DNA of 64,000 nt. Source: a virus (lineage: Duplodnaviria; Heunggongvirae; Uroviricota; Caudoviricetes). Shown here one piece after another: positions 1,777 to 60,396 of this stretch (its first letter is position 1; each line of letters begins with the position of its first letter). Under the pieces are notes generated by a model, which was not told the origin of the DNA, did no database searches, and saw only the letters and a list, made by a program, of their open reading frames with translations. A program made the position numbers and the translations under genes. The DNA lies in the IMG/VR virus record IMGVR_UViG_3300032167_007519. One strand, written 5' to 3'.

Positions 1777-1800
1777 TTATTAGCTACTTTTTGGTTTAAG
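1777..1800 (-). promoter_or_regulatory. Conserved intergenic motif copy 1 (promoter-like), upstream of radical SAM gene
   Basis: ttattagctactttttggtttaag + atgtcgg, 50 nt upstream of the ATG. Confidence 0.6.
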
Positions 1801-1813
1801 ATGTCGGAGAGTT

Positions 1814-1842
1814 TAGAAAAAGTCTCTGTTAAAACAGAGACT
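1814..1842 (-). terminator. Intrinsic terminator (minus strand) after gene 1882..3072
   Basis: Hairpin AGTCTCTGTT-AA-AACAGAGACT followed on the minus strand by UUUUUC. Confidence 0.6.
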
Positions 1843-1881
1843 AATTCTAAAAAAATATATTTAGGGTTTAAATTAGATAGA

Positions 1882-3072
1882 TTACCAAAGATTTGCATAC
1901 GGAGTAACAGCTCTGATAGAATCTCTTACTTCTTCATCATATGGTAAAATAGTTCTAATATCATAGAAATCTTTACGTTTGGAAATAACCATGACTAATT
2001 CTGGAGTCTGATTGATATCTACATTGACATGTAGTGGCAGAACCCAATGTAATTCATCTTCTTTTGCTTTATAAATTGCTTTTGCATAAGAACCACCACA
2101 ACGATGAATACTAAGACCTGTATCTAATTCCTGAGAAATCTTTCTGGCTAATTCGAAATCAGAAATTTCTGCAATATTTTCCGGAAATCTTTCTCTTCTG
2201 GAATCAACACAATGACTTAAACTCTGATAGCTTGCATCATACAATTTTGGATTTGTGGAGAATGATGCAAAACGGTTATCTAATAAAGAAATTGGTTTCA
2301 ATTCTTTTGCTGCATCTTCCATAGTAAAACCATGTTCTGTGTAAGTTGTTTTACTTAAAATGATTTTGAACGGATAATAACAGTTATCTGTAACATGATA
2401 ACGATACATAACATGGAGATATCCGCCAAATCGATTTAATAAACCAATGTTAATTACTACCGATTTAATATTATTGACAACATAGTAATCTGTCATCTTG
2501 TTGTTGACATAGTACTTAATTTGATTGCTTAAGATTAACAAATATCTACGAAGACCGTTTGGAGATTCCCAATTATTTAATAATAACAACTCTTTTAACT
2601 GTTCGGCTATATCTCCAGCATCACGAACTTGTACAGATTCGTTCGAAGTATTTTCACTTACTGGCAACTCATCTAAACAGTTATCTTTATATTTTCTTAA
2701 AAAATTAAAACCATTTAACTGGAATTCTTCCTTATTTGCTTCGAAATCCGAGTTTCTTAAGATAAGATAACTGCCTTCTGCGACAAAATGACCTTCAAAT
2801 ACGCCAAAATGTTTCATCAAACATAAGAAAACAGGCTTTCCGTTGCTATTATTACACTTTAAATCAATCCACGCATATTTTGCGTCTTTTTTAGTTACTC
2901 GTTTGCACTTATTATCAAAATAATAAATATCTGTTTCGTTATTTTTTATTTTTTCTGCTAATTGAGCAAGGTCACACTCCATTCCAGTAAACTGGGAATA
3001 AAATTTTTCAAACTGTTCGACTCCGGTTAGTAATAAATCATCGCTTAATTGGAAATCAGATTCATATGCCAT
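1882..3072 (-). CDS. Hypothetical protein (396 aa)
   Basis: Long minus-strand ORF with an RBS. Promoter motif upstream at 3189-3212 and a terminator hairpin downstream at 1814-1842. Confidence 0.55.
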   Translation of the reverse strand: MAYESDFQLSDDLLLTGVEQFEKFYSQFTGMECDLAQLAEKIKNNETDIYYFDNKCKRVTKKDAKYAWIDLKCNNSNGKPVFLCLMKHFGVFEGHFVAEGSYLILRNSDFEANKEEFQLNGFNFLRKYKDNCLDELPVSENTSNESVQVRDAGDIAEQLKELLLLNNWESPNGLRRYLLILSNQIKYYVNNKMTDYYVVNNIKSVVINIGLLNRFGGYLHVMYRYHVTDNCYYPFKIILSKTTYTEHGFTMEDAAKELKPISLLDNRFASFSTNPKLYDASYQSLSHCVDSRRERFPENIAEISDFELARKISQELDTGLSIHRCGGSYAKAIYKAKEDELHWVLPLHVNVDINQTPELVMVISKRKDFYDIRTILPYDEEVRDSIRAVTPYANLW

Positions 3073-3188
3073 ATTTTATTTTTCCTTTCTTATCAACAAA
3101 CAACAATTTTTTTGACTTATAAAAAACTATCTTAATCCAATGGAATCCCCTCCTTTTTTTTGTTTAGAACAACAAATATAAGGTACGT

Positions 3189-3212
3189 CTATTAGCTATT
3201 TTTTGGTTTAAG
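3189..3212 (-). promoter_or_regulatory. Motif copy 2
   Basis: ctattagctattttttggtttaag + atggcgg. Confidence 0.6.
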
Positions 3213-3225
3213 ATGGCGGGAATCC

Positions 3226-58483: not shown

Positions 58484-58507
58484 GTATTAGCTACAATTTG
58501 GTTTAAG
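58484..58507 (-). promoter_or_regulatory. Motif copy 18, 95 nt upstream of copy 17. Two hairpins lie between them.
   Basis: gtattagctacaatttggtttaag + atgtcgg. Confidence 0.55.
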
Positions 58508-58748
58508 ATGTCGGTAAATATTTGCCGAAAGCATTAAACAAATTTCCAAGAGTCTACTAAAGATAAGTGAAATCCAATTTCTTCTCCCCAAATGGTTCGA
58601 ATAACTAATTCCTCTCCTTCTACTTCACAATAGTTGGCATCTGTGATGCGAAAAAAGGGCTTTTGAGGATTTTTATAAAAAATATCAATCGTGGTTAGCA
58701 ATTATAACTCCAATGTTTTGTAAGTGCTTAGTTCGGAGAAAAGGAAGG

Positions 58749-59111
58749 TTAATATCCTTTCTTTTTCATATATTCCAAAAATGTAAGATTGAGCAAAATA
58801 CCAATACCTATGCTGAGAAGAAATTCTAGAATAGACGGTAATGTTGCAAGGTCATCAAATAAAATAATAAAGGCAGTAATGACGGTTAATCTTAAGGTGT
58901 CTAATACTCCATACCGAATATCTTTTTTTGCAGCTTTATCAAAAAGAAATGTTATCATTGCTAAAGAACAAAAAGTAAAAATTGTTGTAGCAAAGATAAT
59001 TACAAGAAGAGGTTGTCCCTTTTCAATAAGAAGATTTGCAAAAAGAGATGTCTCTAAAGTACCAATGGTAATCTTAATTAGCTCTAATCCGAATGAATAA
59101 TTCTTTAACAT
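58749..59111 (-). CDS. Membrane protein (120 aa, 3-4 TM)
   Basis: Hydrophobic ORF. Confidence 0.5.
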   Translation of the reverse strand: MLKNYSFGLELIKITIGTLETSLFANLLIEKGQPLLVIIFATTIFTFCSLAMITFLFDKAAKKDIRYGVLDTLRLTVITAFIILFDDLATLPSILEFLLSIGIGILLNLTFLEYMKKKGY

Positions 59112-59413
59112 AGACTTTTACTCCTTTGAAACTGATGAACTATTTTAGGACGGTTATAAAATTCTTCTTCTGTAAAATAACAACTGTTTTTATGAAGAGT
59201 TGTGATATTTCCACGAGCATCATAAAGATATCCGTCTTTCTCTAAAATAATGTGCTCTTCTGCTGGTAAATATCTGATTTTTCCACCAAATTCTTTTTGT
59301 AACAAAAGAGCAAATTCTAAACAGCCACCATGTAAAAAATAAGATACCGAATGCTGTGTTTGTTTTCGAATGGTATCTATCTCTTTTTGCGAGATTCTTT
59401 TTGTGTACTCCAT
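59105..59413 (-). CDS. Hypothetical protein (102 aa)
   Basis: ORF. Confidence 0.5.
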   Translation of the reverse strand: MEYTKRISQKEIDTIRKQTQHSVSYFLHGGCLEFALLLQKEFGGKIRYLPAEEHIILEKDGYLYDARGNITTLHKNSCYFTEEEFYNRPKIVHQFQRSKSLC

Positions 59414-59637
59414 AAGGCCTTTATCTCTTTTCTGAATAAGGTAAGTCCTATCACAATTAAAATAATTACAGAAAAAATAATAAAACTTGGATAGGAAATT
59501 AACATCTTTTCTTCTAAAGCAGAAAGAGGTTCCGGGAAGAATGCTTTCGCTTTATATAAGAAATAACTGTAAATCCCAGTAAGGACTCCAAATAAAAATA
59601 CTTTGAATGTTAAAAGGATATGGTCATTATTCTTCAT
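59377..59637 (-). CDS. Membrane protein (86 aa)
   Basis: Two TM helices. Confidence 0.45.
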   Translation of the reverse strand: MKNNDHILLTFKVFLFGVLTGIYSYFLYKAKAFFPEPLSALEEKMLISYPSFIIFSVIILIVIGLTLFRKEIKALWSTQKESRKKR

Positions 59638-60331
59638 TTTGGGCTCCTGTTGTCGTTGAAAGTTCTTCTTTTTCTTTGACTAATTGCTCTAAATCTTCGG
59701 ATTTGTCAAAGATACCTTCTAATACCTTTTCTTGATAGGTACGATTTTCAATATTGGTGATTCGTTCTGTGATTTGACCATTTGAAAATGCTTCTAAATT
59801 GAATTGGTCAATCATAAGGGTTAACTGTAATAAGTCCTTATATTTTCGTCTGGTTTGACGTAATTCTTTGAACTGTTTCATTAACCGATAACCTTGGACA
59901 GAACCAAAACTTTGTAACTCAATTTGGTGTAATAAGTCTATTGTGGCTAAATCTGTATATTTAAGTAGACATTCCATATATCCTTTATTCTGTGTTAAAA
60001 ACGCAAGCGTGTTGGAAAGCTGCTTCATTTGCTCGTAAATATCTTCTAGAGAAATCTCTGTAAGGGGACCTTCAATGGCTTCGTTTCTTTTAAATAAGGA
60101 CATATTGTTTTTTAATTGTTCGTAATGAGTAGAAACTTCTTGCACTTCCGTAAGATATTCAATTACTTTGCAACCTTTGTTTTTATAAAGTTTTGGTAAA
60201 ACAGACATGGCATTTTTTGCCGCCTGCTTTGTTTCAAAACAATATGCAAGTGTTTGGTTATTCACCGGAGTAAAAGAGTTATTTTCTTCTTTTTTAAGAT
60301 ATTTATCTCCACAAGCAATGATAAATCCCAT
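59627..60331 (-). CDS. Hypothetical protein (234 aa)
   Basis: ORF after promoter motif 60373-60396. Confidence 0.5.
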   Translation of the reverse strand: MGFIIACGDKYLKKEENNSFTPVNNQTLAYCFETKQAAKNAMSVLPKLYKNKGCKVIEYLTEVQEVSTHYEQLKNNMSLFKRNEAIEGPLTEISLEDIYEQMKQLSNTLAFLTQNKGYMECLLKYTDLATIDLLHQIELQSFGSVQGYRLMKQFKELRQTRRKYKDLLQLTLMIDQFNLEAFSNGQITERITNIENRTYQEKVLEGIFDKSEDLEQLVKEKEELSTTTGAQNEE

Positions 60332-60372
60332 GAGTATGCTCCTTTGTAAAATAAGAATGATAATAGTTACAA

Positions 60373-60396
60373 GTATTAGCTATAATTTGGTTTAAG
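60373..60396 (-). promoter_or_regulatory. Motif copy 19
   Basis: gtattagctataatttggtttaag + ttggcgg. Confidence 0.6.

Follow-up and report, generated by a model that had tools for sequence, protein, structure and literature searches.

A Long, Oriented, Promoter-Like Motif before Nearly Every Transcription Unit of a Megaplasmid-Like Element

Introduction

The IMG/VR record IMGVR_UViG_3300032167_007519 is filed as a tailed virus of the Caudoviricetes, and we analysed a 64,000-nt stretch of it, referred to below as the window. Gene calls of the source contig (JGI Ga0307249_10003745), obtained by protein look-up, together with the RNA genes cover ~82% of this stretch. Protein-coding operons, tRNA genes, and a gene for tmRNA lie there on the minus strand, and a Tad-like pilus operon belongs to the same element. 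An earlier, model-made reading of the letters alone (the sequence-only reading) had noticed an oriented motif of ~35 nt ahead of nearly every transcription unit and had proposed that it is a class of promoter. Here we confirm that the motif is a real feature of the window, and we conclude that, with high probability as judged from its sequence and placement, it is a promoter.

Definition and Conservation of the Motif

Aligned in the gene direction, the 19 copies of the window give the 37-nt consensus TTnCCGAcAnCTTAAACCAAAnnnTAGCTAATAnnTR, with a total information of 48.9 bits. A search with the 23-mer CTTAAACCAAANNNTAGCTAATA, allowing up to 3 mismatches, recovered the same 19 sites that the sequence-only reading had listed, all on the minus strand, where shuffles lead one to expect 0.01; only the copy placed at 38566 had to be moved, as its core occupies 38557-38579. 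When the window was scored with a 37-nt weight matrix, the 19 copies reached 36.9-54.6 bits and no other site on either strand reached 8 bits, meaning that there are no weak copies; the top score in mononucleotide shuffles was 4.2 bits. A relaxed two-part pattern with a variable spacer likewise returned these 19 copies from the window and none further. The shorter core TTTGGTTTAAG (plus-strand reading), with at most 1 mismatch, has 19 matches, 18 on the plus strand against 3.5 expected. Seventeen of them are motif copies and two are strays, at 53931 (plus) and 57741 (minus); copies 42908 and 49730 carry two core mismatches and are hence missed by this search. Beyond the window, the element carries three additional copies, with one of these in the gap that separates the VirD4-like gene from the Tad-like operon; this brings the total to 22.

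The copies are only ~39% alike at the 18 variable columns, and similarity at these columns does not depend on genomic distance (r = -0.005, permutation p = 0.44). Because the variable positions are scrambled without an effect of distance, the fixed positions are held by selection, and a recently copied cassette can be ruled out as the source of the repeats. The motif does not fold (mean folding-energy z +0.24), nor do the copies have a common hairpin, which excludes REP-like, attC-like, hairpin-promoter, and structured-RNA-signal readings. We also considered a generic host repeat, the outcome that the sequence-only reading had named as its refutation. In a scan of 185,579 representative genomes, the core of 18 specified bases occurred once each in 19 scattered genomes, which is approximately the chance level, and the best full-matrix scores among these matches were 20-21 bits, against 36.9 bits for the weakest window copy. 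Repeats of the REP, BIME, or MITE type were rejected, given the lack of structure, the single orientation, and the absence of multi-copy chromosomal loci.

Two further details of the earlier description required revision. The 10-nt palindrome ATTAGCTAAT, which it had made part of the motif, is present in only 2 of the 19 copies (4609 and 41761), and its 8-bp portion in 4; the palindrome that is conserved within the window is the 6-mer TAGCTA (16/19). Of the three variant copies that it had singled out, 5236 and 29530 are indeed the most divergent, but 46454 is only mildly so, and 42908 takes third place instead.

Placement Relative to Genes, RNAs, and Terminators

The positions and surroundings of all copies are collected in Table 1; in the text, copies are also named by the start of their core (41761 is 41757..41793 and 4609 is 4605..4641, for example).

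Table 1. Copies of the 37-nt motif in the window, listed in the direction of transcription (ORF, open reading frame; aa, amino acids; dG, folding energy of the terminator)
Position	Strand	Score (bits)	Variant	Context
60370..60406	minus	49.6		First after pilus operon and HTH_3 gene; 42 nt before 234-aa ORF 59627-60331, then 86-aa, YunG-like, 120-aa, and 55-aa ORFs
58481..58517	minus	51.8		Upstream member of tandem pair; ~90-nt hairpin-bearing leader to next copy
58362..58398	minus	50.0		Before ~300 nt unannotated, probably structured RNA; then tRNA-Lys, tRNA-Gln, HNH ORF
57005..57041	minus	45.3	TAGCTAAAT	75 nt upstream of tRNA-Met 56858-56933
56781..56817	minus	53.5		23 nt upstream of tRNA-Leu; unit continues with tRNA-Met, GOLLD-like RNA, tRNA-Gly, nucleotidyltransferase, tmRNA, DUF2828, tRNA-like RNA
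49726..49762	minus	47.6	ATTAAACC	98 nt upstream of tRNA-Ser, then gene for 968-aa Big_2 protein
46450..46486	minus	46.1	ATTAAACC and TAGTTA	After 13-bp-stem terminator; 46 nt before 305-aa HTH_3 gene
44434..44470	minus	46.7	CCAA for CCGA	36 nt upstream of PGA_cap gene 43268-44401
42904..42940	minus	43.1		After terminator (dG -15.5); 113 nt upstream of 263-aa ORF
41757..41793	minus	49.5	Full ATTAGCTAAT	27 nt before start of 80-aa ORF; operon of 80, 162, 144, 486, and 122 aa
38553..38589	minus	51.6		After 15-bp-stem terminator; three 10-bp-phased TATAAA repeats downstream; operon of seven small ORFs
36561..36597	minus	54.5		Heads operon 36514 to 31200, including Band_7/flotillin genes; TATAAA-type repeats downstream
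31087..31123	minus	44.9	CCTA for CCGA	After terminator (dG -18.9); 67 nt upstream of 176-aa ORF
29526..29562	minus	40.9	TGTCTA	Overlaps last 15 nt of small coding sequence; 43 nt before guanylate-kinase-like gene
28846..28882	minus	49.5		After terminator (dG -15.7); heads ~23.5 kb with ~42 genes (28793 to 5305)
5232..5268	minus	36.9 (weakest)	CCGTTTT and CAGCTA	After terminator; 40 nt upstream of 169-aa ORF
4605..4641	minus	51.6	Full ATTAGCTAAT	After terminator; four TATAAA repeats follow; then 57-aa ORF and AAA ATPase gene
3186..3222	minus	51.0		3 nt past stop of AAA gene, no terminator between; 117 nt upstream of DUF3825 gene
1774..1810	minus	54.6		After terminator (dG -11.7); 50 nt upstream of radical-SAM gene 837-1727; unit runs on beyond window (NAPRTase, PncA, other genes)

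All 19 copies fall within the 17.8% of the window that called genes and RNAs leave free, apart from overlaps with the end of a coding sequence of 15 nt in one case and 1 nt in another. The distance that the sequence-only reading gave, 25-120 nt to the first gene or tRNA, is about right for 17 copies, in which 23-117 nt separate the end of TAATA from the start codon or tRNA 5' end that follows; it does not hold for the tandem pair 58485/58366, which lies 430 and 311 nt upstream of tRNA-Lys. There are 34 intergenic gaps that measure 60 nt or more, and 18 of them hold a copy. The sole long copy-free stretch, between 28.8 and 5.3 kb, consists of tightly packed genes. A clear hairpin with a T-run within 40 nt precedes 8 copies and a weak one ~3 more. 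The statement that most copies follow a terminator was thus too strong, yet the frequency is far above the ~3-4% found at random positions. The shortest leader is that of copy 41761, where only 27 nt, including a Shine-Dalgarno sequence, separate TAATA from the ATG; any transcription start is therefore confined to ~1-11 nt after TAATA (index ~23-33).

Direct repeats of TATAAA with a phase of ~10 bp, in 2-4 units, were observed 10-45 nt downstream of copies 38557, 36565, 4609, 1778, 31091, and 58485. The pattern TATAAA.{3,6}TATAA has 9 matches in coding orientation in the window, 7 of which lie within 80 nt downstream of a copy, and four of the repeat sites contain TATAAATA. These phased repeats may give some of the promoters an additional regulatory site.

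Relatives of the Element

Relatives were found as syntenic contigs by way of homologues of the TadA-like ATPase. In five of them (L043, L044, L061, L062, and L048; TadA-like identity 66-71% and 50%), the gap between the VirD4-like and SAF genes holds a terminator followed by a co-oriented variant of the motif, which reads TTAAAC, 9-10 nt, (C/T)TAATAT, and then nTAGAT. In L044, a second copy follows the genes for HTH_3 and guanylate kinase, and L048 has four copies, in the orthologous gap, before and after its tRNA array, and upstream of another gene. All ten copies of the relatives are intergenic and on the coding strand. The distance from TTAAAC to the hexamer is fixed across the relatives, except for 1 additional nt in L062, and in many of their copies the 3' element makes a fair -10 hexamer (TAATAT, TATTAT, or TATAAT).

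What the window and its relatives have in common is only TTAAAC, a gap of 10-11 nt, and (C)TAATAn, with the T and A of TAATA invariant. The CCGAnA box and the G of TAGCTA are confined to the window's clade, so that neither the palindrome, which reads TATCTA in the relatives, nor a CCGACA -35 is among the conserved recognition elements. The anatomy proposed in the sequence-only reading, a weak CCGACA -35 followed by a conserved spacer, has to be turned around accordingly: since the relatives keep TTAAAC and CTAATA and lose CCGA, the box that was assigned to the spacer is the conserved recognition element, and CCGACA is specific to the clade. In its broader outline the promoter reading gained from these data, as orientation, intergenic placement, terminators, the proximity of Shine-Dalgarno sequences and tRNAs, and a co-oriented variant at the orthologous sites of relatives all agree with it.

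The motif was not found in the more distant relatives L045 (TadA-like ~50%, a different lineage), L046 (39%), and the Butyrivibrio plasmid pCY186, although the last shares the operon layout. At least some intergenic regions of these more distant relatives, and of L044, look like ordinary TTGACA-N17/18-TATAAT promoters. Just upstream of the first cargo promoter, L044 and L048, which both bear the motif, conserve a 133-aa HTH_3 protein (45-50% identity); none was found in L045, which is without the motif. As a separate observation on L045, its nrdD gene for anaerobic ribonucleotide reductase (4120-7721) is split into two ORFs with a 226-aa ORF between them, which may reflect the insertion of an intron or intein.

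Repeats of other kinds were met in two unannotated human-gut "Bacteriophage sp." scaffolds, MT835532.1 (L035) and MT835757.1 (L037), which have one distant protein in common with the window. The former carries copies of the palindrome GGTGCGACACnnTGTCGCACC over 30 kb, 9 of them on the plus strand, and the latter a dense iteron cluster, TGTGTATA-N5-TATACACA, at 6.2-7.0 kb. These tblastn-linked repeats (the GGTGCGACAC palindrome and the iteron cluster) are unrelated and were rejected as forms of the motif.

Nature of the Element

Proteins identical to those of the element recur on 11-24 contigs, which come from several JGI, ENA, and Logan samples; the source contig spans 117 kb and others reach 164.6 kb (164,574 bp). 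Upstream of the window, a protein of ~1,300 aa is encoded whose L045 homologue ends in an NlpC/P60 domain, and the upstream genes also include those for a VirD4-like coupling protein, a RuvC-like protein, and an Xre-type HTH_3 protein. The Tad-like operon, on the same side, codes for a SAF/CpaB-like protein, a TadA/CpaF-like ATPase, a fused membrane protein, and pilin-like proteins whose N termini form membrane helices. Among sequenced replicons, the matches of the TadA-like and VirD4-like proteins are distant (25-35% identity) and all are large Bacillota plasmids, among them pCY186 and pCY360 of Butyrivibrio proteoclasticus and plasmids of Ruminococcus albus, Clostridium, and Paenibacillus. 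Neither as a single sequence nor as an alignment did the TadA-like protein retrieve relatives from IMG/VR, and megablast of 10 kb against phage records gave no match. Scans for the exact motif in IMG/VR and in the JGI metagenome collection were also without a match, though JGI contigs reached by protein carry the motif; the collections that were scanned evidently lack this element.

Because of the VirD4-like protein, the NlpC/P60 hydrolase, the Tad-like operon, and the matches to Bacillota plasmids, we treat the element as conjugative and megaplasmid-like. Judged from its gene content, it does not look like a phage but like a megaplasmid of gut Bacillota that carries phage-like cargo, and the suggestion that the motif belongs to a phage-encoded system is doubtful on the same grounds. 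The phage-like cargo comprises eight tRNA genes and a tRNA-like element, tmRNA, a GOLLD-like RNA, and DUF2828/TROVE-vWA, YopX, YunG, and HNH genes.

Several of the RNA genes deserve a description of their own. The GOLLD-like RNA (55448-55898, minus) matches the whole of Rfam model RF02032 (1-416) with 76 bits and E = 1e-18, short of the gathering score of 150; the RNA fills a seemingly empty gap of 1.3 kb between tRNA-Met and tRNA-Gly within a motif-headed unit. A 127-nt tRNA-like element (50830-50956, minus; Rfam tRNA, 47 bits), which ARAGORN does not call, lies directly downstream of a DUF2828/DUF7788/vWA (TROVE-like) gene (51022-52497, minus), an arrangement that recalls Ro-like proteins with their tRNA-like Y RNAs. 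The tmRNA (53280-53667, minus) is full length, with 132.8 bits and the tag ANAYRPVAQAA; the smallest published plasmid that carries tmRNA is the 190-kb pMP7017 (PMC10832533). An HNH endonuclease ORF (57240-57755, minus) lies between tRNA-Gln and an orphan tRNA 3' half, and isolated T-arm-like pieces occur in non-coding gaps at 50336-50354, 50203-50219, and 60824-60842. The orphan half and the T-arm pieces suggest disrupted or intron-containing tRNA genes. Finally, ~300 nt at 58055-58361 (minus), between copy 58366 and tRNA-Lys, are unannotated and GC-richer, with hairpins and a T-arm-like segment, and have no Rfam match.

Promoter Geometry

The -10-like hexamer TAATAn has T at position -7 in 2 of the 19 window copies and in 5 of the 22 on the whole element, and no other register sets TAnnnT on conserved positions. 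CCGACA lies 19 bp and TTAAAC 11 bp upstream of the hexamer. No copy joins T-12, A-11, and T-7 with a -35 element at 16-18 bp, in line with the earlier remark that this is not a plain sigma-70 promoter. A consensus sigma-70 scan of the region from 44 to 64 kb does not call the motif copies, and sigma-70-like sites as such are not enriched there (59 found, 66.7 expected). The layout of a housekeeping sigma-70/sigma-A promoter thus fits at neither the -10 nor the -35: most copies lack the set of T-12, A-11, and T-7, no TTGACA-like element stands at 16-18 bp, and CCGACA is not kept in relatives.

Other known classes were also compared and set aside. For Bacteroidota sigma-AB, TTTG at -33 and TAnnTTTG at -7 are missing; TAnnnTTTGG is present on the opposite strand only and with the wrong spacing, so the earlier observation that this shape is absent in the gene direction is correct. 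For sigma-54 (TGGCAC-N5-TTGC), TAGCT resembles TTGCW, but AA and not GG is found 12 nt upstream. The geometries of SigB, SigD, SigG, SigK, and extracytoplasmic function (ECF) promoters and the direct repeats of LytTR were rejected on sequence grounds. A MerR-type activator in the 19-bp spacer lacks a dyad, and the CCGACA it would work with is not conserved. A dyad-symmetric HTH or ParB operator is disfavoured by symmetry that is limited to the 6-bp TAGCTA, with TATCTA in the relatives. Against an archaeal TFIIB-recognition element (BRE) and TATA box, the tmRNA, the Shine-Dalgarno sequences, and the Bacillota-type conjugation genes argue for a bacterial host.

Discussion

The reading that we consider the most probable, with confidence that is fair but far from complete, is that the motif is the element's standard promoter, composed of a -10-like TAATAn and a TTAAAC box, and that it is read via a dedicated specificity factor. 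The motif would be read as double-stranded DNA. In this scheme, (C)TAATAn would serve as the -10-like element, with T-12 and A-11 invariant, and TAKC, conserved clade by clade, as an upstream extension of it. The TTAAAC box would be located at approximately -29 to -24, 10-11 bp upstream of the hexamer, which is too near the -10 to serve as a sigma-70 -35 element and leaves region 4 of a housekeeping sigma out of reach. About one helical turn above it, at approximately -37 to -34, would lie a clade-specific upstream box, CCGAnA in the present case. Transcription would start 4-9 nt downstream of TAATA, 6-8 nt past the hexamer, with A favoured at index 29; in an alternative register, the start would be at the conserved T-purine step that follows the hexamer by 2-3 nt, that is, 3-4 nt after TAATA. 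As this geometry and the weak -10, with T rare at -7, are unfit for a housekeeping sigma, a dedicated factor is the likely reader and would direct bacterial RNA polymerase to these sites. It might be an alternative or divergent sigma, or an activator that binds TTAAAC and replaces -35 recognition, in either case co-evolving with the motif. A single such factor would drive essentially all units, including the Tad-like pilus operon, the cargo operons, the tRNAs, the tmRNA, and the GOLLD-like RNA.

Several points weigh against this reading. The motif, its placement, its conservation under selection, and the co-varying relatives are direct observations, whereas we infer that it drives transcription, where transcripts begin, and that a factor exists. 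In the relatives, the hexamer is often a good TAATAT or TATAAT, to which host sigma-A could contribute. The information content of ~49 bits exceeds what any single sigma usually needs, and a promoter and an operator may be superimposed. Moreover, no sigma factor, RNA polymerase, or AraC- or MotA-like activator was found in the ~88 kb that we inspected, namely the window and its flanks; the element measures at least 165 kb, and at least 75 kb of it lies outside this inspection. The search drew on precomputed Pfam tables, on relaxed-threshold Pfam and PHROG scans of ~60 proteins, and on a scan for the DxDGD motif. In the latter, D.D[GAS]D was not present in any of the 203 coding-strand ORFs of the inspected region, which also lacks a Pfam RNA_pol (T7-type) match. 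A PDB sequence search with the 759-aa C-terminal fragment of the 1,270-aa upstream protein of L045 did not disclose a reading factor. Single-sequence AlphaFold models were of low confidence, with pLDDT 58 for the 305-aa HTH_3 protein and 48 for the 234-aa first cargo protein. The 133-aa HTH_3 protein is a candidate regulator, yet the motif has no dyad of the kind that one would expect an Xre-type dimer to require.

The alternative that survives best, though we hold it to be unlikely, is an ordinary host sigma-A promoter with a weak CCGACA -35, a 19-bp spacer, and a TAATAn -10, into which the site of an element-wide regulator is embedded. The stretch formed by CTTAAACCAAA and TAGC would then be bound by a plasmid-encoded global repressor or activator, as in pMP7017 or with KorA/KorB of IncP-1, for which the HTH_3 protein at 60949-61350 is a candidate. 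The GACA of CCGACA does match TTGACA, the hexamers of the relatives are often TAATAT or TATAAT, and the small HTH_3 protein is conserved in the motif-bearing L044 and L048 and was not found in L045, which is without the motif; high information content suits two superimposed signals, and the pMP7017 motif was itself interpreted in this manner. However, CCGA is lost in relatives while the distance between TTAAAC and the hexamer stays fixed, and a 19-bp spacer together with a base other than T at -7 in 17 of 19 copies would make a poor sigma-A promoter, one that the sigma-70 scan does not call. The motif is also asymmetric, in contrast to the dyads usual for Xre dimers, and its only dyad, TAGCTA, is the part that relatives do not conserve.

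Less probable still, and in our view quite improbable, is a promoter for an RNA polymerase of the element's own, either single-subunit or divergent two-barrel, whose gene would lie in the rest of the element and make it self-contained in the way of T7-like and some giant phages. A long, nearly invariant, all-or-none motif of ~49 bits is typical of phage polymerase promoters; conservation here reaches a T-purine step that could be -1/+1, and TAATAAGTR resembles the ends of T7-type and mitochondrial promoters. Furthermore, tRNA and other RNA genes are driven like mRNAs, and the motif co-evolves between relatives. Against this, the ~88 kb contain neither the Pfam and DxDGD signatures noted above nor a large unexplained polymerase-like protein, the ~1,300-aa upstream protein being a VirB6-type conjugation protein with an NlpC/P60 domain. 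The 1-nt change of spacer in L062 is more typical of two separately recognised elements, and we know of no bacterial conjugative plasmid with its own polymerase. A role other than promotion (a cassette boundary or recombination site, a replication or partition repeat, or an RNA-level processing or translation signal) is very improbable: direct repeats of 23-37 nt do flank cargo modules whose order varies between relatives (the AAA_2 gene follows the HTH gene in L044 but is 57 kb away in the window), and copy 3190 does follow its upstream gene without an intervening terminator, but the motif lacks the secondary structure of attC sites, REP elements, and RNase sites, is always upstream of genes and never at 3' ends only, follows terminators, where transcription must restart, lies as near as 23 nt to tRNAs, and looks quite different from the iteron-like and palindromic repeats of other records.

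The dedicated-factor promoter can be extended into a bolder proposal, which we regard as doubtful though somewhat less so than the embedded-operator alternative. This is that a conjugative Bacillota element of at least 165 kb runs an orthogonal programme, in which an unrecognised sigma-like factor or the element's own polymerase reads the 37-bp promoter with its TTAAAC box at about -27, transcribes essentially everything (conjugation pilus genes, cargo genes, tRNAs, tmRNA, and the GOLLD-like RNA), and co-evolves with this promoter between related elements. The high information content and the all-or-none distribution would fit such an orthogonal system, and would equally fit a promoter with a superimposed operator.

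One highly specific promoter may control a whole conjugative element that is widespread in sampled gut communities. If this is true, a single factor would activate the transfer genes, the RNAs that support translation, and the cargo jointly; its identity would reveal by what means large cryptic plasmids keep their expression insulated from the host, and the factor and promoter could provide an orthogonal pair for the engineering of anaerobic Bacillota. The motif is also a practical marker, which delimits transcription units and flags fragments of this element family in metagenomes, where the family is at present classified as neither phage nor plasmid.

Comparison with Known Systems

T7 promoters span 23 bp (-17 to +6). 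Promoters of this class are, like the present motif, long, all-or-none, and strand-specific, stand before most units, and have a TATA-like end by the start site; the motif differs in its 37 bp, in a spacer that varies by 1 nt, and in the lack of such a polymerase gene in the inspected ~88 kb. The middle promoters of T4 combine a MotA box with a sigma-70 -10 and are used through sigma appropriation with MotA and AsiA. They resemble the motif in a -10 with a box near -30, 11-13 bp upstream, in the lack of a usable -35, in their many copies, and in the use of the host core enzyme with element-encoded helper proteins, which is proposed for the present element. However, the T4 box is TTTGCTTTA and the box here is CTTAAACCAAA, T4 retains a good TAnnnT, the ~88 kb yielded no homologue of MotA or AsiA, and the present motif is far more conserved (~49 bits). 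PeSL cassettes of T4-type phages consist of an ordinary sigma-70 early promoter and a stem-loop, both conserved. They likewise place a promoter beside a terminator hairpin, in one orientation, between shuffled small cargo modules, whereas here only the promoter is conserved and the terminators vary in sequence. The operator OB of the ParB-type protein KorB of IncP-1, TTTAGCSGCTAAA, is a 13-bp perfect palindrome at variable distance from promoters. It too is a plasmid-wide repeated site in promoter regions, and its half-site TTAGC resembles TTAGCTAA; in contrast, the motif is oriented and in fixed register to genes, with an 8-bp palindrome in only 4 of 19 copies and TATCTA in relatives. From these comparisons, none of the four seems to fit as the family to which the motif belongs.

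The closest published case is the 34-bp motif of pMP7017, a 190-kb conjugative megaplasmid of Bifidobacterium breve with tRNAs and tmRNA (PMC10832533). That motif overlaps the mapped -10 of 19 promoters, serves ~24% of genes, and recurs in related plasmids but not in chromosomes; its conserved block runs from a canonical -10 (TATACT) downstream into the leader of TTGACA-N17-TATAAT promoters, and its authors read it as a transcription-factor site (PMC10832533). Both elements are large and of the conjugative plasmid type, carry tRNAs and tmRNA, and have 19 long, near-invariant copies at the promoters of many operons. The features of such a plasmid-wide, promoter-associated motif are also found here, namely many copies, presence on related elements, absence from representative genomes, and, as we infer, overlap with the -10. 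The sequences are unrelated, however, and the conserved block reaches upstream from a non-canonical -10 in the present motif, which takes the place of a -35 and stands before nearly all units. The elements themselves are not detectably homologous, as the TadA-like and VirD4-like proteins described here match only Bacillota plasmids. Conserved promoters that are specific to a mobile element are an already known kind, to which the present motif would belong.

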